Shown here piece after piece: positions 48,335 through 58,170 of a DNA stretch of 64,000 bases; within the stretch, counting starts at the first letter, position 1; each line of letters begins with the position of its first letter. The notes beneath the pieces are model-generated. The model made no database searches. It was not told the origin of the DNA and saw only the letters and a program-made list of their open reading frames with translations. The translations under genes and the position numbers were made by a program. The DNA comes from Anaerolineae bacterium (GTDB taxonomy: Bacteria; Chloroflexota; Anaerolineae; SpSt-600), in the NCBI GenBank assembly GCA_042408195.1, contig JBHOQL010000067.1:11579-75578 (forward strand), in the 5' to 3' direction.

Positions 48335-49807
48335 TTGAGCGCTGTGGACATTCTTTCCGCCTTTGCTCCGGAGATAGTCCTCTTCTTGGGAGGGCTGGTC
48401 CTTCTGGCTCTGGATATGGTTTGGAAGAGGATGAGGGGGGAGAGAGAGGCCACAATATTGGGCTTGGCACTGGCTTTCGTAATCCTATCCTTCATTTTTC
48501 TACTGGCCTTTGGCAAGGTCTTGGCTTCACCCGTGCTGGGGGTCCTAGCCTCCGACAGGTTTGCCCTCTTCTTCAAGGGGTTTGCCCTGGTAGGGACAGG
48601 GCTCGTCATCTTGTCTTCCTACCGGTACCTTGAAGGTTACACCCCTTACCGCGGAGAATTTTACGCCTTTCTCCTCCTGGTTGCTTTGGCCATAATGCTG
48701 GTCGTAGGGGCTGTGAACCTGCTAATGCTTTACCTGACTTTTGAATTCCTCAGCCTTACCTCTTACATACTGGTAGGCTACCTGAGGGAGGAGGGCAAGT
48801 CAAGCGAGGCTGCCATAAAGTATTTCCTCTACGGAATTACCGCTTCCGCCATGATGCTATACGGCATGTCGCTCCTCTACGGGGTTACCGGAACACTAGA
48901 TTTAACCAGGATAGGGCCAGCCCTAAGCAGAAGCGGAGTCGGCGGCTGGCTAGCTTTCCCTGCCATCGTGCTTCTCCTGGCAGGCTTCGGGTTCAAGATT
49001 GCCCTTGTTCCCTTCCACCAATGGTCTCCTGATACATACGAGGGCGCTCCCACTCCAGTGACTGCTTTCCTCTCGGTAGGGCCCAAGGCTGCCGGGCTGG
49101 CAGTGCTCATGAGGGTTTTCATAACAGCTCTTCCGGGATTCCAGCCGGAGTGGGCTGGAGTGTTGGCCGGCATTTCCATGGTAACCATGACTTTGGGGAA
49201 CTTGGTGGCTCTCCGCCAGGAGAACATCAAAAGGATGCTGGCTTACTCCAGCATCGCTCATGCCGGTTACATCATCATGGGCGTCGTGTGCATGGTGAGT
49301 GGAGTGACCAGTAACTTCACCGGCCTTAACGGGGTCCTTATCTACTTGATGGCTTACCTCTTTACCAACCTGGGGGCTTTCGCCGTGGTCATAGCGGTGG
49401 AAAGGGCTATCGGTTCCAACCGTATTTACGATTACGCCGGCCTCGTGAAGCGAGAACCCTTCCTGACCGGAGCCATGATCGTATTCCTCCTTTCCCTGAT
49501 CGGTATACCTGGGACTGGAGGATTTGTGGGGAAATTCTTCGTCTTTGGAGCAGCCATCCAGTTACAGTTCTACGTTCTGGCTTTAGTGGGGATAATAAAC
49601 AGCGTTATCTCGGCTTTCTACTATCTCAACGTAGTCAGGCATATGTTCTTCCTGCCCGGAGATGAAAGGCCGATCCAGGTTAGCCCCTCTCTCAAGTGGG
49701 TTGTATTGGTGAGCCTGATAATGGTCTTCGTAATTGGCCTTTATCCTCATCCCTTTATCTCCATAGGCACCGAAGCCGTCCAGGTGCTGGGTTCTACTTT
49801 GTTCTAA
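48335..49807 (+). CDS. nuoN: NADH-quinone oxidoreductase subunit N
   Basis: 490 aa with ND2-like composition. It is the last gene of the operon. Confidence 0.85.
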   Translation: MSAVDILSAFAPEIVLFLGGLVLLALDMVWKRMRGEREATILGLALAFVILSFIFLLAFGKVLASPVLGVLASDRFALFFKGFALVGTGLVILSSYRYLEGYTPYRGEFYAFLLLVALAIMLVVGAVNLLMLYLTFEFLSLTSYILVGYLREEGKSSEAAIKYFLYGITASAMMLYGMSLLYGVTGTLDLTRIGPALSRSGVGGWLAFPAIVLLLAGFGFKIALVPFHQWSPDTYEGAPTPVTAFLSVGPKAAGLAVLMRVFITALPGFQPEWAGVLAGISMVTMTLGNLVALRQENIKRMLAYSSIAHAGYIIMGVVCMVSGVTSNFTGLNGVLIYLMAYLFTNLGAFAVVIAVERAIGSNRIYDYAGLVKREPFLTGAMIVFLLSLIGIPGTGGFVGKFFVFGAAIQLQFYVLALVGIINSVISAFYYLNVVRHMFFLPGDERPIQVSPSLKWVVLVSLIMVFVIGLYPHPFISIGTEAVQVLGSTLF

Positions 49808-50366
49808 AAACCTGGCTGGTGGGCCCTTTCAATTCCAAAGGGATGCCGGCCACCATTAGGATAACCCGGTCTGCCCGGGCCGCCAACCACTGATTAACCT
49901 CTCCCAGCGCATCACGGTAAATCCTTCCGGAGGGATAAGGGGGCACTACCCCCATCCCTACTTCATTGGAAACGACGATGAGGACGGTTTTATGGGCTTT
50001 GCATAGATTCAGCACCGATTCCAGTTCCTCAACAGCCTGTGCCGTTAGGCGGTCTACCGTCGCCGATTCACCTTTCTCCATCATCAAGTTGGAAACCAGC
50101 AGAGTTAAACAATCCAGGATTGCCACTTTTGCCTCACTGATTACCTGCTCCAGGGCTTGCCCAATGCACGAGGTTACTTCCAGAGTACGCCAGTGGATTG
50201 GTCGGGTAGCCCGGTGGCGGGCTATACGCTCTGCCATCTCCTCATCTCCTGCTGTTGCCGTTGCGATGTAAACGACGGGTTCGCCTATTTCTTCGGCCAG
50301 TTTCTGAGCATATTTGCTCTTACCGCTGCGGACTCCCCCCAGGATAAGGATTACTTCTGATCCCAT
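49794..50366 (-). CDS. cobU: Adenosylcobinamide kinase / adenosylcobinamide-phosphate guanylyltransferase
   Basis: N-terminal P-loop ILILGGVRSGKS (compare S. enterica CobU ILVTGGARSGKS). 190 aa. Confidence 0.85.
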   Translation of the reverse strand: MGSEVILILGGVRSGKSKYAQKLAEEIGEPVVYIATATAGDEEMAERIARHRATRPIHWRTLEVTSCIGQALEQVISEAKVAILDCLTLLVSNLMMEKGESATVDRLTAQAVEELESVLNLCKAHKTVLIVVSNEVGMGVVPPYPSGRIYRDALGEVNQWLAARADRVILMVAGIPLELKGPTSQVFRTK

Positions 50367-51127
50367 CGCTCTATCCCCTCTAGCAAGGATAAAACCAAAT
50401 TAAGGGAAGGAAAGAAGTCTTCCGCTGAGAAGACCTCCAGCGTGATGACTCCCTCAAACTCCTGACGGACGACTTCGGCCAGGGAGGCACGGAGTGAATC
50501 GATGGGGGCCCAGAGGAGAGAAGCATGGTCGCGTTGGTTTACCCCATGGAGGTGAAGAACCCTTGCCCGTTTCAGATGGGTTTGGAGGATCGGGAGAGGG
50601 TCTGCGCCTGCCATCCAAAGGTGTCCTACGTCCAAGCACAAGCTCACGGGTATCTGATCCAGAATCGGGCTGACGTGTTCCAAGGGGCAGTTTTCCAGGT
50701 TTTCCACGGCCAGAACTTCTGGATTCCCAGTTTCCTCGGAGAGGAGTTTCAGGGCTTCGGTGCTCATCCTTTCCCAGGAGCTCTGATCCCCGGTTCTGCA
50801 TGGAGTGAGGTGGATAATGTAGGCCCATGGTTCCAAAGGGCGTGTGCGCTCGATCACCTGCCTGGCCTTTTCAACCGATTGAATCCACTTCCGACCTCGC
50901 GCTCCCAGTTCCAAGTCGGTGGGTAAGTGAACTGTGTAGGTCATTCCATAAACTCGAGCGATTCTCCGCAGTTCGCTTATCGTGTGAGCGTCGGGAAGGT
51001 TGCTGGCATCGGCCACCTCGAAGAGCACGAGTTCTACGTCTTCAACGATTCCCGCAAGCCGCTGCACGTTAGGAAGGATATCAGCTGGGTAGATGTAAGA
51101 AGTGGAGCCCAATCGGAATTTCACCAT
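50351..51127 (-). CDS. Xylose-isomerase-like TIM-barrel (AP endonuclease 2 superfamily) protein. It is a candidate CbiR-type cobamide-remodelling phosphoribosyl hydrolase.
   Basis: About 258 aa from the internal start MVKFRLGS. The ORF-track start at 51178 is an alternative. E...D.GH-type metal-site motifs are present (ENLENCPLEH, LDVGHLWMAG). It lies between cobS and cobU, and its start overlaps the cobS stop. Confidence 0.45.
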   Translation of the reverse strand: MVKFRLGSTSYIYPADILPNVQRLAGIVEDVELVLFEVADASNLPDAHTISELRRIARVYGMTYTVHLPTDLELGARGRKWIQSVEKARQVIERTRPLEPWAYIIHLTPCRTGDQSSWERMSTEALKLLSEETGNPEVLAVENLENCPLEHVSPILDQIPVSLCLDVGHLWMAGADPLPILQTHLKRARVLHLHGVNQRDHASLLWAPIDSLRASLAEVVRQEFEGVITLEVFSAEDFFPSLNLVLSLLEGIERWDQK

Positions 51128-51867
51128 ATTCTCTTTGCTGCCATAAGCAGAACGATTGCTGTTTCCACCAGCTCGCACAGAGCTCCGTAAACATCACCAG
51201 TGAACCCTGGGATGCGTTGCATCACCCATCGGGCGAATAGGACGGTAAAAAGCAAGGTGAGGGCAGAGGAAACCGCTGTTTCCATCGGATATACAAGGAA
51301 AAGAGGTATAAGCCACATCGTGGCCCCGGCCAAGCTGTGCCTGTCAGAGGCTCCTTTTATTGCCCTACCGATGCCGTTGACGCGAGCGGAGGGGTAGCAG
51401 ACCATCGCGTAAACCATCGCCCACCGGCCCAGGGTTGGGGCCAGAAGCAGGGCACTCTTGCCATCACTGGACAGGAAAGAGGCAAGGGAGGCGAATTTGA
51501 CCAGAAGCAGCGTTATTGCCCCGATCACCCCGAAAGCGCCCGTGTGGACATCTCGCAGGATTTCAAGCCTCGCCTCTGGTGTTTTGGCGGCAAGGAGTGC
51601 ATCACAGCAATCTACAAAGCCATCCAGATGGAGGGCTCCGGTTAGAGCTATCCAAAAGGCAAGGACGAGAGAAGCTTTTACTAAAGGGGCGAAAATCCAG
51701 CCGAGCAGCCAGTCGGTTCCAGCCAGTAACAGCCCTATAACTATCCCAGCGGCAGGGAAGGCCCACGAGGCTTTCCCCACTTCTGCAAGGCTAACTTCCC
51801 CCAGAGGAAGGGGTAGGCGGGTCAAGAAGTGCAATGCGACCAGAAGCGAGCGCAATTTCTGCAGCAT
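51121..51867 (-). CDS. cobS: Adenosylcobinamide-GDP ribazoletransferase (cobalamin synthase)
   Basis: 248 aa and polytopic. The N-terminus LTRLPLP and HLDGFVDCCDAL are CobS signatures. Confidence 0.85.
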   Translation of the reverse strand: MLQKLRSLLVALHFLTRLPLPLGEVSLAEVGKASWAFPAAGIVIGLLLAGTDWLLGWIFAPLVKASLVLAFWIALTGALHLDGFVDCCDALLAAKTPEARLEILRDVHTGAFGVIGAITLLLVKFASLASFLSSDGKSALLLAPTLGRWAMVYAMVCYPSARVNGIGRAIKGASDRHSLAGATMWLIPLFLVYPMETAVSSALTLLFTVLFARWVMQRIPGFTGDVYGALCELVETAIVLLMAAKRIW

Positions 51868-52925
51868 TATCTGGTCCTTTCCGAGACCCCGGCCTCAGCG
51901 AAGGTGGCCATTTCGTTCAAAATCTTGCAAGCAGCTTCCACCAGGTGCATAGCCAAGGCGGCTCCAGTCCCTTCTCCCAGCCGCATGTTCAGGTTCAGAA
52001 GGGGTTTTAAGCCTAAGTGTCGGAGCATAGCGCTGTGGCCTGGTTCTGCGGAGTTGTGCCCGGCGATGCAGTAAGCTGTCACGGTGGGAGCGATGGTCGA
52101 TGCGATGATGGCTCCGGCCGTGGAGATAAACCCATCCAGCACCACGGGGATACGGTTCGCTGCTGCTCCTAGCACTATCCCTGCGATCACGCCAATTTCA
52201 AACCCTCCTACTTTGGCCAGCAGGTCTATTCCGTCCTTGGGGTCGGGATTATTGACCTTCAGCGCCCGTTCTACTACCGCGATTTTGCGGGCCAAGCCTT
52301 CGGTGTCCAAGCCAGTGCCTCGGCCTGTGACTTCCGCCGGTGGCAGGCCGGTGACAGCTGAAGCGATTGCTGCCGCTGGAGTTGTGTTGGCGATACCCAT
52401 ATCCCCTGGCGCTACTAAGTCCAAACCCAGGGCTTTTTCCTCTTCAACGAGGGCTATCCCTGTTTCCAGCGCCTGGATAGCTTGCTCGCGGCTCATAGCG
52501 GGACCCAGAGCTATGTTACCGGTGCCATAGCCGAGCTTTCGGATCTTCAACCCTGGGTGAGGTTCCAGATCGGCAGCGACGCCTGCATCCACCACTACCA
52601 CCCGTGCACCTACGTGCCTGGCTAGGACGTTTATTGCAGCTCCTCCTCGCAGGAAGTTGTAAACCATTTGAGCGGTGACTTCCTGGGGATAAGCGCTTAC
52701 TCCTTCGGCTGCTACTCCGTGGTCTCCGGCCACAACTATTACAGCCTTGTGGCGGATTACTGGCCGAGGATTGCCTGTGATTCCGGCAACTTTCACCGAG
52801 AGTTCCTCTAACTCGCCCAGGCTTCCTTGGGGCTTGGTCAACTGGTCCTGGCGCTTCCTTGCCTCCTCCATGGCCGAAAGGGAAAGAGGACCGATTTTAG
52901 CGATGGTTTCCTGCAGGTATTTCAC
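51867..52925 (-). CDS. cobT: Nicotinate-nucleotide--dimethylbenzimidazole phosphoribosyltransferase
   Basis: The core reads LTKPQGSLGELEEL...VVAGDHGVAAEGVSAYPQEVT...VVVVDAGV. I chose a GTG start at 52925 with RBS GGAGG 5 nt upstream. The longer ORF-track version would overlap the upstream gene by 85 nt. Confidence 0.8.
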   Translation of the reverse strand: MKYLQETIAKIGPLSLSAMEEARKRQDQLTKPQGSLGELEELSVKVAGITGNPRPVIRHKAVIVVAGDHGVAAEGVSAYPQEVTAQMVYNFLRGGAAINVLARHVGARVVVVDAGVAADLEPHPGLKIRKLGYGTGNIALGPAMSREQAIQALETGIALVEEEKALGLDLVAPGDMGIANTTPAAAIASAVTGLPPAEVTGRGTGLDTEGLARKIAVVERALKVNNPDPKDGIDLLAKVGGFEIGVIAGIVLGAAANRIPVVLDGFISTAGAIIASTIAPTVTAYCIAGHNSAEPGHSAMLRHLGLKPLLNLNMRLGEGTGAALAMHLVEAACKILNEMATFAEAGVSERTR

Positions 52926-52927
52926 GG

Positions 52928-53860
52928 CTACCTCCTTTCGGTGAGAATTGAAATTCCGCAAATCCGGCAATGGTGGGAATTGGGAAGCATCCCGGCCCCG
53001 CAGTTTGGGCATGCGACCTGTCCAGGAACGGGGGTTGGAATCTCTCCCACTACTTCCCTGTAAATTCGATAGTAATATGGCTGATCAGCACTGATGAATT
53101 GGAAGGAAGCTGTCCGATCGGCCTCGGTTACCAGGCTTGCAACTTTTTCCCGAAGTCTAGCGAATCCTGACCCCACTTCTATAGGGCGTTTATCCTGCCA
53201 GCAGATTTTCGGAGGCAATTTGTTCTCAAAAGCCTTTCGCAGAATCCATTTCCCAAAGCGAACTCCGTTCTCTTCCCGGACTTTGAACTCAGGTGGGATG
53301 GCAAGAGCCGTCTCTACCACCCTTTGGTCCAGAAATGGCTGGCTAACTTTTATCCCGAACCAAGAACCGAGTTCGTTGGCCGAAAAAACCATCCGTTCTG
53401 AGAGCCAAGGGATATAAGTTGTCAGGTCCAGATCGAACATGTAGGAATATCCAGCGAAAAGCTCATCGGCACCATCGCCTGTCATAATGCTCTCAAACCC
53501 TCGCTCTTTAGCTTCAGTGAAGGCAAAGTAAAGGGCAAGGTCATTGGGCAAAGCAGGGTCGAAACTCCTCCTGATGCGTATGACTTCAGGGATGGCGGCC
53601 AGTGCTTCTTCTACTGATACTTCTCGCACTATCAAATCAAACCCAAAAGTTTCAGCCATGAGCCTGGCGTAAGGCAGGTCGCTGCCAGTTCCCTCCAGGG
53701 ATACGTGGATGGTGGAAATCGGGGATGCGATGGAAGCCAAAATGCTGCTGTCCAGGCCGCCGGAGAACAACAGTGCCTGGGCAGGGTGCTTTTTCACAGC
53801 CCCTTTAATGGTGGAGTGCAGCTCGTGGAGCATGGTTTCCATACACAAATCGTCAAGCAT
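52928..53860 (-). CDS. Asparagine-synthetase-like PP-loop ATP pyrophosphatase lacking the N-terminal glutaminase domain, with a C-terminal zinc ribbon
   Basis: The PP-loop is SGGLDSS and the AsnB-type motif is TGDGADELFAGY. The C-terminal CPNCG...HHCRICG is a likely Zn ribbon. 310 aa. Confidence 0.6.
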   Translation of the reverse strand: MLDDLCMETMLHELHSTIKGAVKKHPAQALLFSGGLDSSILASIASPISTIHVSLEGTGSDLPYARLMAETFGFDLIVREVSVEEALAAIPEVIRIRRSFDPALPNDLALYFAFTEAKERGFESIMTGDGADELFAGYSYMFDLDLTTYIPWLSERMVFSANELGSWFGIKVSQPFLDQRVVETALAIPPEFKVREENGVRFGKWILRKAFENKLPPKICWQDKRPIEVGSGFARLREKVASLVTEADRTASFQFISADQPYYYRIYREVVGEIPTPVPGQVACPNCGAGMLPNSHHCRICGISILTERR

Positions 53861-54635
53861 ATAGGTCAGGAAGGACCACAGGGCGGAGATTATCGGGCCT
53901 TGGGAGCACTACCAAGCTGCTGCCGTAGGCTTCTCGGAGCCTCTCTTGGCTTATAACCTCTTCCGGTAATCCCGTGGCCAGAATCCTCCCATTGGCCAGA
54001 AGAATAATTCTGTCGGAAAAGGAGGAAGCGAGGTTCAGATCGTGGAAGACAGCCAGGACAGCAAGCCCTTCCTCTTTTGCCAGTTTGCGGATGAGCCCCA
54101 AGACTGAGGCTTGATGGTGTATATCCAAATGGGCAGTAGGTTCGTCCAGAAGCAATATTCTGGGTTCCTGGGCTAGTGCCCTGGCCAAGATCACCATCTG
54201 GCGTTCCCCTCCCGACAATTCTCCTACCATGTTGTCCTTCAAATGCGATATCTTTACCCACTGCATGGCTTTCTGCACTGCTCTGATGTCTCTATCTCGG
54301 GCGATTCCGGGAAAGTTCAGATATGGCGTGCGGCCCAGGAAAATGCTCTCCCAAACGGAAAAGGTTGGGGGTATGTAAGCATCCTGCGGTACAAAGGCGA
54401 TTACTCGGGCAAGGTCTCTCCTCTTCCATTTCTGCAAGGGATGGCCCACGATTTCAATTTCTCCCCCTTGTAGCGGCAGGATGCCAGCTATGAGCTTGAT
54501 AAGGGTGGACTTGCCAGCACCGTTGGGACCTATGAGGCTTACTACCTCCCCCTCGGCTACACTAAGGCTTATCCCTTTGAGCACTGGCTTGCCATCGTAG
54601 CTGAACTGCACTCCCCTTACTACCAGTGGCAACAT
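53853..54635 (-). CDS. ABC transporter ATP-binding protein, BtuD/FecE-like (corrinoid or iron-chelate uptake)
   Basis: Walker A GPNGAGKST, signature LSGGERQM and Walker B LLLDEPTAHLD are present. I chose the internal ATG at 54635 (RBS GGAGGAA). The ORF-track N-terminal extension is unlikely to be real. Confidence 0.8.
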   Translation of the reverse strand: MLPLVVRGVQFSYDGKPVLKGISLSVAEGEVVSLIGPNGAGKSTLIKLIAGILPLQGGEIEIVGHPLQKWKRRDLARVIAFVPQDAYIPPTFSVWESIFLGRTPYLNFPGIARDRDIRAVQKAMQWVKISHLKDNMVGELSGGERQMVILARALAQEPRILLLDEPTAHLDIHHQASVLGLIRKLAKEEGLAVLAVFHDLNLASSFSDRIILLANGRILATGLPEEVISQERLREAYGSSLVVLPRPDNLRPVVLPDLYA

Positions 54636-54649
54636 GAAATTTCCTCCGA

Positions 54650-55690
54650 TTAAAATGGGAAAATCTCTTTCTTGTGGCGGCGAAGAAGGTAGAGGAAGAA
54701 GGGGGCTCCTAAGAAAGCGGTAACCACACCGATAGGCAGTTCCCTCGGAGCGAAAATCAGGCGTATGAACCCATCGGCCAGGATGAGGCATATAGCACCG
54801 AGAAGCCCGCTCATGGGCAAGAGGAAGCGGTAATCAGACCCCCACACAATTCGCACTATGTGGGGTATTATGAGCCCCACAAAACCTATTACTCCGCTCA
54901 CAGAAACAGCGGCGGCAGTGGCCAGGGACGCAGCAGCTATAACGATAAGCTTGACTTTTTCCACTTCCACACCCAGAGCCGTAGCTTGGTCCTCATCAAG
55001 CTGAAGGACGTTGAGGATATAAGAGTAATAGGCGATGACTCCGAAAGCCACAGCCATGTAAGGGATTACGGTCTTTATCTTGGGCCAGTCGGCCAGAGCC
55101 AAGCTGCCCATCAACCAGCCCAGCAGGTTGATAGTGTGAAAAGCTTCCCGAGCAGTGAACATAAAGAATGTAGTGGCCGATGAAAGCAGGGCCCCCACTG
55201 CTACCCCTGCCAAGATCAAAGTTGTCACTGGGGCTTTTCCTCCCACTCTGGCTAAGGAATAGATAGCAGCAGTGGCCAGCAGAGCTCCTCCGAAAGCAGC
55301 CAGCGATATGGCGTTCAGACCGCCCCAGGAAAAGCGCCAGATAAAATAAAGGGCCAGCGCAGCCCCGAAAGATGCGCCTGATGACACACCAAGAAGGTAA
55401 GGGTCGGCCAGAGGGTTGCGGAAAATAGCCTGATAAACAGCTCCAGCTACTGCCAAGGTCATTCCCACCATTCCCCCGAGCACAACCCGGGGGATGCGGA
55501 TCTGGAAAATTATCGTTTCCCAAGTGGCTGGTTCCCCGTTTGCTCCCAGCAGTATCCTTGCTACTGCCGAGAGGGGAATGCCAGCTGCTCCCCAGGTTAT
55601 GGCTATCAAACCGATCACTACCAAAAGGGAGGCGGCGACGGCTAGGGAAAGCCACCGCCGCCTCCTGAGGTTGAGTTTAACGGAAAGCAT
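54650..55690 (-). CDS. FecCD-family ABC permease, BtuC-like
   Basis: 346 aa with about 9-10 TM segments and FecCD-type composition. Confidence 0.8.
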   Translation of the reverse strand: MLSVKLNLRRRRWLSLAVAASLLVVIGLIAITWGAAGIPLSAVARILLGANGEPATWETIIFQIRIPRVVLGGMVGMTLAVAGAVYQAIFRNPLADPYLLGVSSGASFGAALALYFIWRFSWGGLNAISLAAFGGALLATAAIYSLARVGGKAPVTTLILAGVAVGALLSSATTFFMFTAREAFHTINLLGWLMGSLALADWPKIKTVIPYMAVAFGVIAYYSYILNVLQLDEDQATALGVEVEKVKLIVIAAASLATAAAVSVSGVIGFVGLIIPHIVRIVWGSDYRFLLPMSGLLGAICLILADGFIRLIFAPRELPIGVVTAFLGAPFFLYLLRRHKKEIFPF

Positions 55691-56651
55691 CGGGATGCAA
55701 CGCTTTAGCTATTAATTCCAAGGCATAAACAACCCTGGGGCCTGGCCTCGAGACGATATCCGTCTGCTCCTGGGTAAGCTCGATGATGCGCCCCTCTTTT
55801 ACAGCCGTGATTTTATCCCAGCCAGGGCGTTTAGCCACGGTCTCAGCCGATTCACCATAGGGATGGTCGGCTAGGATGATCACTTCCGGATCTGCGGCAA
55901 TTACGGCTTCGTTAGAAAGCTGTAGGTAAGGCTGTCCCGTAGCGATATTTTCACCCCCGGCTCTCACGATGATGTCATGGACGAAGGATCCGGGCCCGAC
56001 GGTCCAGAGGTCACTGGAAAGCTCCCAGAAGACTCTTGGTTTTTTCCTGCCTTCCACAGCCTTGGCTATGGACTCCATCTTCTCCTGCATCTCAGCCACG
56101 AGAGTCTTGGCCTCTTTTTCTTTGCCAGTTATCTTGCCCACAAGTTCTATGCTTTCAAGGACCTGGGGCAGATCGTGGGCATCAACTACCACAACTGTAA
56201 GGCCAAGCTTTTCCAGTTCTGGAAGGACCTGGGCTATGTGGATGCTGGCGACGAGCACAAGGTCAGGGTTCAAAGCCATGAGCTTTTCTATGCTGACGTC
56301 AGCGAAACCACCGACTTTGGGCTTAGCCTGGGCTTCGGGAGGATAATTGCAGAACTCTGTCACTCCAGCCACCCTGTCTGCAAGGCCGAGGGCGTAAAGG
56401 ATTTCGGTTATGGATGGTGCCAAGGACACAATGGCTTTAGGCTCAGCTTTGATGGTGACCTGGCGGCCTGCAGGATCCGTCACAGTCATGGGATAAGGAG
56501 ATGGAGTTGGGGTAGGGGGCGGCGCGGGGGTGAAAGTTGGAGTTGGGGGAACGGGTGTCGGGGTAGGAGTTGGAGCGGGCTTACACCCTGCTCCAATCAA
56601 AAGCACGGCGATGGTCAGCAGTGTTATGGTGATAAAAGTCAACCGTTTCAT
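55677..56651 (-). CDS. Periplasmic binding lipoprotein, cluster A / BtuF-like (corrinoid or siderophore)
   Basis: I chose the internal start MKRLTFITITLLTIAVLLIGAGC (lipobox) with RBS GGAGGTG. A Pro/Thr-rich linker is followed by a BtuF-like fold (LAPSITEILYALGLADRVAGVTEFCNYP). Confidence 0.7.
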   Translation of the reverse strand: MKRLTFITITLLTIAVLLIGAGCKPAPTPTPTPVPPTPTFTPAPPPTPTPSPYPMTVTDPAGRQVTIKAEPKAIVSLAPSITEILYALGLADRVAGVTEFCNYPPEAQAKPKVGGFADVSIEKLMALNPDLVLVASIHIAQVLPELEKLGLTVVVVDAHDLPQVLESIELVGKITGKEKEAKTLVAEMQEKMESIAKAVEGRKKPRVFWELSSDLWTVGPGSFVHDIIVRAGGENIATGQPYLQLSNEAVIAADPEVIILADHPYGESAETVAKRPGWDKITAVKEGRIIELTQEQTDIVSRPGPRVVYALELIAKALHPDAFR

Positions 56652-56685
56652 AGCACACCTCCGCACAGGATTGATCAAACAAAAA

Positions 56686-56707
56686 GCCCCCCTGCTAGCC
56701 GGGGGGC
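56686..56707 (-). terminator. Rho-independent terminator serving as the riboswitch expression platform (GCCCCCCGGCTAGCAGGGGGGC followed by UUUUU on the minus strand)
   Basis: Read from the minus strand: a 7-bp G/C stem, an 8-nt loop, then T5. It lies about 35 nt upstream of the btuF-like start codon and downstream of the B12 aptamer. Confidence 0.55.
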
Positions 56708-56829
56708 ATAAATGAAAACCCCTTGCCTGCATAGCAGACAAGGGGGAACTCACCGTTCCATTCCCCTGTGCTCGCAGGTTCCTGGAACCGGGTCCCGGAA
56801 ACGTTCTCTTACAAGAAAGTTAACGGGCC

Positions 56830-57010
56830 CCTTGCGGCGAGGCAGGTATCCTGGCTCTCCCGTCCTTAAGGGTGCGGCCTTATAGCCCCGGCCCTTCTTG
56901 CACCCTGGACAGGATTACAGTTGCGGCACAGCGCCGGCCTTTCCAACCCTTAGGGGCTTCGGGCTGGATCACCGGACTTCCCCTTTTAAGGCCTGCCTTT
57001 CGGTCAGGCT
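56830..57010 (-). promoter_or_regulatory. Cobalamin (adenosylcobalamin/B12) riboswitch aptamer
   Basis: The minus strand contains the AAAAGGGGAAGTCCGGTGA region, the GCTGTGCCGCAACTGTAA element and the B12 box GCCAGGATACCTGCC in the canonical order. The boundaries are approximate (about +/-15 nt). Confidence 0.8.
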
Positions 57011-57084
57011 CACCCCGCCGCCTATTTAACTGGTAAAGTACAAACCTATTATAGCGCGGAAGCACAGTCAAGGCAAATTGGGCC

Positions 57085-58170
57085 CTAAGGCATCATGGGG
57101 ACTTGGGTGAGGAGTTTACCTCTTATGCGTTCAAAAATTTCATCCAAGTCCCGACCGGTTATAGTCAGGCCATGGTTTTTCAGCCCAACCACGGCCCTGG
57201 AAGGGTCCTCGGCTTGTTTGAGGGCATTGACTACTTCCATAGCCAGCTCCCTCGTCCCGCAGGGGTAATTCTGGCGAGTGGGAACTACTCCTTCCATCCA
57301 GGCGTGAGCGTGGACAATTGCTCCCACTTCAGGGAAGTTGGAATAGATAAGGTAGTGCTCAATGGCATCAACTGACGCCCGAACTGTGGGGTCGTAATCG
57401 GGGGGCACGCTCACCAAGATAGTGTTTTTCTCGGGATTGAACCCTTTTATGAGGACGATGTCCTTCCCAATCTTGGAAAGTTTTGCTTTGTTAACCCCCC
57501 TCGCTGTCATCCAGAACGTGGTTTCCCCAAGCTCCGGAATGTTCTCGCGAGCGCTCAAATTGCCGTAGCTAAGGCCCGTTATCCCGTATAGCAAGTAAAC
57601 ATGCCGCAGGTCTCTTTCTGATAAAAGTTCATGGATGGGGAACGGGGCAGGCAGTATGCCCATCTTGTCCATTTCCCGGCCGTAGTGGATAAGTTTCTCT
57701 GTGATGGGTGTGCCGTTCCAGTAAGCCGCAGGTAAGTCGGGTGTGATTTCGTTCTCTATCACCAGGACGGAGCAGGCTAAAGGCATAAGATGCTGGTAAA
57801 CCTCTTCGGGGTTCCAGGGGACTTTGTAGAAGCCTGCTTCCAGAGTTGTAAAGTAAATATCTACCTCTTCTCCCCTGACATGGGCATAAAGGACCAGGTT
57901 TGAAAGGCTGCGGACCAGCACTGTGTAAGCAGCCCGATGGGCATTTTCGGGAAGCTCTTCCACCACTACTAGGCTAGCCACAAACACTCCCTTCGATTTG
58001 CGGCGGTAAGGTCGGGGTTCGTTAGGATCAGTGAGGTTGAGGATCAAGCTGACTTCCGGGTCATTTTCGTGGGAGAGGGTGTGTCCTTTCGATTGCAACA
58101 AAGCCACTATCTTTTCCGCCAATGCATCTCTGACCGGATGCTTATCCAAAGCTACTACCGCGAATTTCAT
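57085..58170 (-). CDS. Class II aldolase/adducin-domain protein with an N-terminal domain of about 150 aa and unknown function
   Basis: The C-terminal half has aldolase-II motifs (GITGLSYGNLSAR, EVGAIVHAHAW, LKNHGLTITG). The N-terminal half was not recognised. Confidence 0.6.
   Translation of the reverse strand: MKFAVVALDKHPVRDALAEKIVALLQSKGHTLSHENDPEVSLILNLTDPNEPRPYRRKSKGVFVASLVVVEELPENAHRAAYTVLVRSLSNLVLYAHVRGEEVDIYFTTLEAGFYKVPWNPEEVYQHLMPLACSVLVIENEITPDLPAAYWNGTPITEKLIHYGREMDKMGILPAPFPIHELLSERDLRHVYLLYGITGLSYGNLSARENIPELGETTFWMTARGVNKAKLSKIGKDIVLIKGFNPEKNTILVSVPPDYDPTVRASVDAIEHYLIYSNFPEVGAIVHAHAWMEGVVPTRQNYPCGTRELAMEVVNALKQAEDPSRAVVGLKNHGLTITGRDLDEIFERIRGKLLTQVPMMP

Follow-up and report, generated by a model that had tools for sequence, protein, structure and literature searches.

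The window analysed here, the whole stretch of 64,000 nucleotides of DNA from an Anaerolineae bacterium, harbours within a vitamin B12 (cobamide) operon a gene of the asparagine synthetase type for which we have coined the name asnX; AsnX denotes both its product and the B12-associated subfamily to which the product belongs. The gene is located on the minus strand at 52928..53860, and its open reading frame (ORF) codes for 310 amino acids that comprise an AsnB synthetase domain (PF00733) and a C-terminal Zn ribbon. All genes of the operon are on the minus strand and follow each other in the order btuF-btuC-btuD-asnX-cobT-cobS-cbiR-cobU behind a cobalamin riboswitch. The best explanation for the findings of the present study is that AsnX represents a distinct subfamily of glutaminase-less AsnB-type PP-loop adenylating enzymes that is dedicated to the handling of cobamides.

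The operon opens with the cobalamin riboswitch aptamer (56824..57032), which matches RF00174 (60.4 bits, gathering score 31.5, E 5.7e-13). It is followed by a btuF-like gene for a periplasmic binding protein of the corrinoid/siderophore type (55677..56753; PF01497, E 2.2e-43), whose product is 68% identical to that of the first gene of a related Anaerolineae operon at locus L082, and by a btuC-like permease gene (54650..55690; PF01032, E 1.8e-91), for which the best NCBIfam model is the BtuC permease model, with a score under its cutoff. The gene for the btuD-like ATP-binding cassette ATPase was placed at 53853..54635 (PF00005, E 2.4e-37); its listed ORF reaches 54791, homology begins at Met53, and a tblastn search with the BtuD of L082 spans 54635-53868. 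Downstream of asnX, the products of cobT (nicotinate-nucleotide:dimethylbenzimidazole phosphoribosyltransferase; 51867..52925), cobS (adenosylcobinamide-GDP ribazoletransferase; 51121..51867), cbiR (cobamide-remodelling phosphodiesterase; 50351..51127) and cobU (adenosylcobinamide kinase / guanylyltransferase; 49794..50366) were assigned by TIGR03160 (480 bits, cutoff 319), TIGR00317 (138 bits, cutoff 110), NF041277 (250 bits, cutoff 105) and NF004469 (201 bits, cutoff 161), respectively. Removal of the lower-ligand nucleotide is the activity of CbiR (PMC7733943), and the operon is an import-and-remodel unit in which BtuFCD imports the cobamide, CbiR strips it and CobU, CobT and CobS rebuild it.

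The operon at L082 has the order btuF-btuC-btuD-asnX-DUF71-cbiB-cobD-cobT-cobS-cbiR-cobU and is colinear with that of the window (L082:10001-14107 against window 52923-53860), with 58-86% amino acid identity per protein, minus the segment DUF71-cbiB-cobD. Neither DUF71-B12 nor cbiB nor cobD was found anywhere within the 64-kb window. The idea that the window has traded DUF71-cbiB-cobD for cbiR as an alternative route of remodelling was rejected, as L082 and L010 hold both sets. In the window, a clear CbiR homologue is thus encoded in an operon of Chloroflexota-like type, with cobS on one side and cobU on the other; L010 and L082 carry CbiR, too.

The asnX gene is closely joined to its neighbours on both sides. 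Its ATG at 53860 overlaps the btuD stop codon by 8 nucleotides (ATGCTTGA), and its stop codon TAG (52928-52930) is followed by CC and then by the GTG start codon of cobT (52923-52925), which leaves a gap of 2 nucleotides, as read from the sequence. The last codons of asnX contain the ribosome-binding site for cobT, GAAAGGAGG (GGAGG). The actual start of asnX may be the ATG at 53842 (Met7) rather than that at 53860, because the alignments with homologues begin at Met7.

PF00733 (Asn_synthase) is the sole Pfam match of AsnX (E 2.9e-43; 149 bits, gathering score 21). The NCBIfam models of AsnB align to AsnX via their C-terminal halves only (model positions 208-501 of 554), and the scores of 117.5 bits for NF006949 and 117.4 bits for TIGR01536 stay below the cutoffs of 499 and 267.1. 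Because these models match by their C-terminal halves only and far under cutoff, we conclude that AsnX lacks the Ntn glutaminase domain; the protein begins at the position of AsnB residue ≈208, and Pfam gives no GATase match for it. The PP-loop SGGLDSS (residues 33-39; 53744..53764), the signature of ATP pyrophosphatases, was read directly from the sequence, and its S33, G35, D37 and S39 are invariant in an alignment of 12 sequences from the three domains of life. A hidden Markov model alignment to E. coli AsnB (1ct9) places the family signature FDPALPND (residues 100-107; 53540..53563) at the AsnB loop YDVTTIRAS, with Pro105 at the site that is occupied by Arg in AsnB and in archaeal and eukaryotic AsnX. 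In a motif census FD[PL]A[LIM]PND was present in 66 of 74 family ORFs, and eukaryotic and archaeal members have FDPMELRN. Alignment to 1ct9 further located the segment TGDGADELFAGY (residues 127-138; 53447..53482) with Asp129, which takes the position of the catalytic Glu348 of AsnB and is invariant in an alignment of 71 sequences as well as in that of 12. The segment at 53189..53251 contains Lys204 and Lys224, both of them invariant across the domains of life.

In the profile alignment to 1ct9, Asp132, Glu133 and Tyr138 correspond to Asp351, Glu352 and Tyr357 of AsnB, and Lys204 and Lys224 to Lys429 and Lys449, two residues that we take to be involved in the binding of ATP and of the adenylate. 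The apparatus for ATP and adenylate is therefore conserved in AsnX, since Asp129, Asp132/Glu133, Tyr138, Lys204 and Lys224 match AsnB positions, and the PP-loop, Asp129, Asp132/Glu133, Lys204 and Lys224 are invariant from bacteria to fungi in the 12-sequence alignment. That alignment also retains FDPMELRN/FDPALPND, TGDGADELFAGYS, GK.ILR.AF and W..K.PIE.GSG. The residues presumably responsible for aspartate binding in AsnB, D384 and R387, are not retained: D384 and C385 are part of an insertion that has no counterpart in AsnX, and R387 is matched by Ser160. Pro105 is found opposite the TTIR-loop Arg, a residue presumably implicated in the formation of the acyl-adenylate. By its residues, AsnX thus looks like an active adenylating enzyme with a substrate other than aspartate. 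The cysteines of the C-terminal Zn ribbon CPNCGAGMLPNSHHCRICG (C284, C287, C298, C301; 52955..53011) are invariant in alignments of 19 and 71 sequences and present in ≥90% of the three-domain alignment of 12, and of the 74 family ORFs from other genomes 71 showed a ribbon; it may be a conserved structural, lid or docking module. An earlier note on this DNA had described the gene as tightly set between a btuD-like gene and cobT and its product as a homologue of the AsnB C-terminal domain without the Ntn glutaminase but with SGGLDSS, DGADELFAGY (residues 129-138) and a CxxC...CxxC ribbon; all of these elements were located, the ribbon as CPNC...CRIC, and the observation proved right in every particular. 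The riboswitch, CbiR and the conserved DUF71-B12 partner of the family were absent from it.

An AlphaFold2 model of AsnX, computed with the 71-sequence alignment as input, has a mean pLDDT of 95.3 and a pTM of 0.91 and superposes on the synthetase domains of AsnB, beta-lactam synthetase and CarA. The best Foldseek matches in the PDB were E. coli AsnB (1ct9; TM-score 0.72, ≈27% identity) and human ASNS, followed by beta-lactam synthetase, carbapenam synthetase and TsnB9 and, at a greater distance, by the PP-loop enzymes TtuA and LarE; the family profile matches residues 209-504 of E. coli AsnB. AsnB and ASNS share with AsnX the fold, the PP-loop SGGxDS, the GxGxDE segment and the equivalents of Lys429 and Lys449, and the course of the AsnB reaction, formation of an acyl-adenylate and then of an amide, would by analogy be expected for AsnX as well. 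Unlike AsnB, AsnX has no Ntn domain, carries Asp in place of Glu348, possesses an additional Zn ribbon, lacks counterparts of D384 and R387 and, in the bacterial subfamily, has Pro instead of the TTIR-loop Arg; its genomic setting is B12 salvage, whereas that of AsnB is amino-acid metabolism. From these sequence features the subfamily can be delimited as proteins of ≈300-390 amino acids in the synthetase domain only, with FD[PL]A[LIM]PND or FDPM[EQ]xRN, a C-terminal CxxC...CxxCG, TGDG[ASG]DE, GK.[IL]LR.AF and W..K.P[IL]E.G[SA]G. The window protein carries every one of these motifs and, in addition, has the context of a B12 operon with a riboswitch.

A precedent for AsnB domains that adenylate carboxylates other than aspartate to form amide or lactam bonds is provided by beta-lactam synthetase (1jgt), carbapenam synthetase (1q15), TsnB9 and the lasso-peptide cyclases. 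Unlike AsnX, these enzymes keep a degenerate N-terminal domain and have no Zn ribbon, and their genes belong to natural-product clusters; at the position of Glu348, where AsnX has Asp, we take them to have Tyr. The catalytic set of the beta-lactam and carbapenam synthetases is presumably Tyr, Glu and Lys. The family profile matched the beta-lactam and carbapenam synthetases more weakly (E 7e-16) than AsnB (E 1e-35), and AsnX scored below the cutoffs of the lasso-peptide and macrolactam cyclase models (43.5 bits against 525 for NF033535; 53.5 against 300 for NF033561).

Relatives of ≈300 amino acids with 46-69% identity were found by a protein database search in Anaerolineae, Omnitrophota, Nitrospirota, Elusimicrobiota and Latescibacterota, the closest of them being 61-69% identical over 88-96% of the length; they are labelled "asparagine synthase-related" or "asparagine synthase (glutamine-hydrolysing)" in the databases. 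A scan of one genome per species yielded at least 525 related loci. The best 80 of these, which come from Chloroflexota, Omnitrophota, Planctomycetota, Nitrospirota, Desulfobacterota and several archaeal groups, were annotated by ORF calling and BLASTP clustering, with clusters named by Pfam; the counts of neighbouring genes, taken within 10 kb, refer to the 77 loci in which the AsnX ORF was intact. At least one gene of cobamide salvage or transport was present in 60 of the 77 loci and in all 17 of those with ≥8 kb on both sides, and among the latter DUF71 and BtuD were each found in 16. The most frequent neighbour was DUF71-B12 (PF01902, motif E[NK]GE[YF]H), which occurred in 46 of the 77 loci, followed by BtuF (39), BtuD (38), BtuC (37), CobT (34), CobS (32), CobU (31), CobD (30), CbiB (27), CobO (24) and CobC (12). 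DUF71-B12 was directly downstream of asnX in 33 loci, to which one DUF71-BtuF fusion and five loci with an intervening radical SAM/SPASM gene may be added; the gene directly upstream of asnX codes for CobD in 14 loci and for a TonB-dependent receptor in 13. The usual orders are cbiB-cobD-asnX or asnX-DUF71-cbiB-cobD, and at L083 such an asnX-DUF71-cbiB-cobD block follows a transporter of the energy-coupling factor (ECF) type. A cobalamin riboswitch directly precedes asnX at L048, on a contig that carries no other B12 gene, and a same-strand upstream cobalamin riboswitch was present in six of eight further loci tested. The earlier note had suggested a co-occurrence analysis of this AsnB-like subfamily with cob genes; the outcome is strongly positive, and the note's view of a functional tie between the gene and cobamides is supported.

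When 70 ORFs without a label that lie between B12 genes were surveyed with Pfam, CbiZ was found in four loci that also possess AsnX and DUF71 (L009, L016, L046 and L053). At L016 and L053, CbiZ, CbiB, CobD, CobU, CobT, CobS, CobC and CobO cover all canonical steps of salvage, and AsnX and DUF71 are still there. As the canonical steps of salvage and remodelling are all staffed in such loci, AsnX and DUF71 must contribute something else. The four CbiZ proteins (PF01955, E ≈1e-50) are encoded at L009:3502-4257, L016:7203-7934, L046:17800-18528 (minus strand) and L053:16692-17420 (minus strand), and the sharing of loci by CbiZ and DUF71-B12 contradicts the strict bacterial anticorrelation reported in 2012 (PMC3541065).

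Other arrangements were noted in single loci or in groups of loci. Two radical SAM genes, one for a SPASM-type protein of 464 amino acids and one for a protein of ≈260 amino acids (e.g. L009:1461-2855; L021:9765-10547), repeatedly occupy the space between asnX/DUF71 and btuF in loci of Omnitrophota, Planctomycetia and Nitrospirota (L009, L012, L016, L017, L021, L025 and L045). A DUF71-B12::BtuF fusion of 478 amino acids is encoded directly downstream of asnX at L012:4962-6398. At L047 (Omnitrophota) two adjacent AsnX ORFs lie upstream of DUF71-btuF-btuC-btuD, and this tandem could reflect different site specificities.

Searching 1.84 billion representatives gave 421 clusters at E ≤ 1e-30. The boundary of the AsnX family lies near 180 bits, and beneath it are GATase-bearing AsnBs without the ribbon; relatives of the P0240 type, unlike AsnX, have GATase_7. 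Fusions connect AsnX with B12-specific proteins. AsnX of Thermoprotei has an N-terminal CobY-like nucleotidyltransferase, for which TIGR00454 and NF045495, both of them models of adenosylcobinamide-phosphate guanylyltransferase, are the best NCBIfam matches, both under cutoff; the fusion gene belongs to an operon of overlapping genes, cobT-cobS-cobY::asnX, with an ECF transporter nearby. Fusion of AsnX to a C-terminal Cys-rich domain (PF04071) also exists (e.g. P0372), and a separate PF04071 protein of ≈120 amino acids is encoded between asnX and cbiB in loci of ANME archaea and Bathyarchaeia (L050, L059 and L061). A similar Cys-rich region is present in the CobD of Methanosarcina, where it has been linked to threonine kinase activity.

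Oomycete AsnX is fused N-terminally to an MMACHC (CblC) domain (PF16690, E 4.5e-5), which is absent from the window. A phmmer search of this N-terminal domain against the PDB retrieved MMACHC chains only (E 4e-4), and the oomycete motif HPTYGPWFGLRAAVVF aligns with HPRFGGWFAIRGVVLL of human MMACHC. MMACHC, whose fold is unrelated to that of AsnX, performs reductive decyanation and dealkylation of cobalamins, and the fusion, which occurs in Aphanomyces, Saprolegnia, Achlya, Thraustotheca, Pythium, Globisporangium, Phytophthora and Lagenidium, suggests that MMACHC and AsnX both act on newly acquired cobalamin. Stand-alone AsnX proteins of 330-420 amino acids are found in Chytridiomycota, Blastocladiomycota (Allomyces), Mortierellomycotina, Umbelopsis, Kickxellomycotina and Basidiobolus, in the dictyostelid Acytostelium, in an ochrophyte alga and, as a second copy, in oomycetes. 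No protein of Dikarya, Mucorales, animals or plants was among the best 120 hits of either eukaryote search. Non-Dikarya fungi use cobalamin, and its use has been lost in Mucorinae and Dikarya (PMC8085122); the eukaryotic distribution of AsnX mirrors the B12-using fungal lineages of that survey, which does not mention the AsnX protein. Oomycetes have two AsnX genes, one for a stand-alone protein of ≈350 amino acids and one for an MMACHC-fused protein of 600-720 amino acids (comparison of P0399-P0404 with P0209, P0283-P0289). In the green alga [Myrmecia] bisecta a gene model of 1867 amino acids (P0252) begins like AsnX and continues as a long low-complexity C2-domain protein; it may be a merge of two genes.

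Clustering, riboswitches, fusions and the phyletic pattern are four independent kinds of evidence for a link to corrinoids, and we consider it very probable that the AsnX family acts on or with them. For the reaction itself we favour, tentatively and at somewhat less than even chance, a role in which AsnX uses ATP and ammonia to amidate a side-chain carboxylate of the corrin, by which imported corrinoids would be repaired or completed. AsnX would bind an imported corrinoid with a free side-chain carboxylate (a deamidated or incompletely amidated corrin) and adenylate this carboxylate with ATP under release of pyrophosphate. Free ammonia would then attack the acyl-AMP, whereby the carboxamide would be restored and AMP released, so that scavenged corrinoids would be repaired or completed before use or remodelling. 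DUF71-B12, the second PP-loop enzyme of the ammonia-ligase type that is encoded next door in most bacteria, may serve other side chains. Within this scheme we infer both the carboxylate that would be the substrate and the use of ammonia as the nucleophile.

Side-chain amidation is favoured because AsnX and its DUF71 partner both belong to families of carboxylate-ammonia ligases (AsnB and Dph6/DUF71, PMC3541065), because AsnX is retained in the absence of CbiB, CobD and DUF71, for instance in the window, because it coexists with CbiZ and CbiR, and because it is present, fused to MMACHC, in eukaryotes that we believe only to use cobalamin. DUF71-B12 belongs to the Dph6/diphthine-ammonia ligase family (PF01902) and resembles AsnX in being a PP-loop ATP pyrophosphatase with the character of a carboxylate-ammonia ligase; the two are separate families (PF01902 and PF00733), and DUF71-B12 adjoins asnX in most bacterial loci, whereas the window has none. 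It was predicted from genomic context in 2012 to take part in B12 salvage as a stand-in for bacterial CbiZ; that study refers to AsnB, in a GATase-bearing form, solely for fusions with DUF71 in a few archaea, and the AsnX partner is unreported there (PMC3541065). A Haloferax paper and a paper of Danchin do no more than cite it. The proposed net reaction, an ATP-dependent conversion of a corrin carboxylate into a carboxamide, is that of CbiP/CobQ and CbiA/CobB. These enzymes combine a CobQ/CobB-type ATPase with a triad glutaminase, are ADP-forming and glutamine-dependent and have a fold unrelated to that of AsnX, whereas AsnX would be AMP-forming and ammonia-dependent; furthermore, AsnX is encoded with importers and CbiP/CbiA with ring-synthesis genes. 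AsnX has no Pfam or NCBIfam match to CbiP/CobQ, to CbiA/CobB or to CbiB/CobD (PF03186). If the reading of AsnX as a re-amidating enzyme is extended to the whole family, and we do so with the same reserve and a little short of an even chance, re-amidation may be a near-universal and previously unrecognised step of B12 handling in anaerobic bacteria, archaea, B12-using fungi, oomycetes and amoebae that is coupled to MMACHC in oomycetes and operates in tandem with DUF71-B12 in most bacteria. Several points weigh against side-chain amidation. The Arg of AsnB and of archaeal and eukaryotic AsnX is replaced by Pro in bacterial AsnX, the window protein among them, and the chemistry could therefore differ within the family. 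Three archaeal loci from Methanophagales and Aenigmatarchaeota (L052, L067 and L076) have no B12 genes nearby, and the tight clustering with cbiB, cobD and the archaeal PF04071 protein fits a role in the aminopropanol (f side-chain) step equally well.

The explanations that compete with side-chain amidation were ranked in the order of aminopropanol arm attachment, ATP-driven removal of the nucleotide loop, lower-ligand chemistry, corrinoid escort and asparagine synthesis. AsnX, perhaps together with DUF71-B12, could adenylate the f-propionate of cobyric acid and aid the attachment of aminopropanol phosphate as a soluble, ATP-using partner of, or alternative to, the membrane-bound CbiB, which refines the proposal of the earlier note. 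CobD is encoded directly upstream of asnX in 14 loci, cbiB-cobD-asnX and asnX-DUF71-cbiB-cobD are typical orders, archaeal asnX is followed by the gene for the Cys-rich PF04071 protein and then by cbiB, a fusion of AsnX with PF04071 exists and so does one with CobY, an enzyme that acts on the product of CbiB. An outright replacement of CbiB/CobD by AsnX, as put forward in the earlier note, is unsupported because CbiB and CobD (in 27 and 30 of the 77 loci, respectively) and in four cases CbiZ occupy the same loci as asnX. CbiB is nearby in only 6 of the 17 full-context loci as compared to 16 for DUF71 and BtuD, and the operon of the window has asnX but neither cbiB nor cobD within 64 kb. Moreover, oomycetes, chytrids and Mortierella carry AsnX, and we know of no B12-using oomycete or early-diverging fungus that rebuilds or assembles the nucleotide loop; a function of AsnX in the aminopropanol arm is, on balance, unlikely. 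That AsnX and DUF71-B12 together use ATP to remove or exchange the nucleotide loop of unwanted cobamides in the manner of CbiZ, for example via activation of the f-amide, would extend the 2012 prediction of DUF71-B12 as a stand-in for bacterial CbiZ (PMC3541065). It would agree with the adjacency of AsnX and DUF71 in 33 loci (39 if the fusion and the loci interrupted by radical SAM genes are included) and with their location beside importers and CbiB/CobD. CbiZ is, however, encoded alongside AsnX and DUF71 at L009, L016, L046 and L053, which weakens the idea of AsnX/DUF71 as a plain substitute for CbiZ, and CbiR co-occurs with AsnX in the window and at L010 and L082. A PP-loop enzyme that cleaves amides is not known to us, and the eukaryotic members are, as far as we are aware, without other loop machinery, so that we regard loop removal as decidedly improbable.

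The earlier note had also considered the activation of an unusual lower ligand, and AsnX might in a similar vein activate or modify a lower-ligand precursor or an alpha-ribazole-type intermediate for CobT or CobS. The gap of only 2 nucleotides between asnX and cobT in the window, the cobT-cobS-cobY::asnX operon of Thermoprotei and the radical SAM genes of some loci would be in line with such a role, but the nearest neighbours across loci are DUF71, importer genes and CobD, not CobT. It is also hard to reconcile with members in oomycetes and early-diverging fungi that are fused to or accompany MMACHC, and no lower ligand that requires amidation of a carboxylate is known to us; we give lower-ligand chemistry a very slim chance. 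AsnX could instead be a non-catalytic or accessory protein that forms no amide but, attached to the importer or to MMACHC, escorts corrinoids, helps in their release or senses them in an ATP-dependent manner. Its gene adjoins those for BtuFCD, TonB-dependent receptors and ECF transporters, its oomycete form is fused to MMACHC, a corrinoid-trafficking protein, and the bacterial subfamily has lost the TTIR-loop Arg of AsnB; yet the strict conservation of the PP-loop, Asp129, Asp132/Glu133, Lys204 and Lys224 in all three domains of life is typical of an active adenylating enzyme, which leaves a pure escort function a slim chance. Finally, homologues are annotated as asparagine synthase (glutamine-hydrolysing) and AsnB is the nearest solved structure, as one would expect if AsnX were an ordinary asparagine synthetase that depends on ammonia, or a different housekeeping amidotransferase, and were present in the operon by chance. 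This is essentially excluded by scores far under the AsnB equivalog cutoffs and the lack of conservation of D384 and R387, and likewise by the B12 context of 17 out of 17 full-context loci, the riboswitches, the B12-specific fusions and the eukaryotic phyletic pattern.

AsnX is probably an AsnB-type adenylating amide synthetase that was recruited to the handling of B12 and marks an undescribed step. We found no description of the AsnX family in the literature searched, in which its DUF71-B12 partner is still uncharacterised as well. B12 salvage and remodelling are deemed well mapped, yet no step has been assigned to AsnX, which occurs in the B12 operons of many phyla. The family provides a partner for DUF71-B12, an orphan since its prediction in 2012, and adds an accessory gene outside the set analysed in the fungal B12 survey (PMC8085122) that is present in oomycetes, too. 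If AsnX does repair deamidated corrinoids, the view of the environmental pool of B12 analogues would change, as would the genome-based prediction of B12 auxotrophy and the database label "asparagine synthase (glutamine-hydrolysing)" of such proteins.

Just upstream of the riboswitch, the window contains an ORF of 361 amino acids (57085-58170, minus strand), in which an N-terminal region of ≈190 amino acids without domain assignment precedes a class II aldolase/adducin domain (PF00596) that is confined to residues 194-290.

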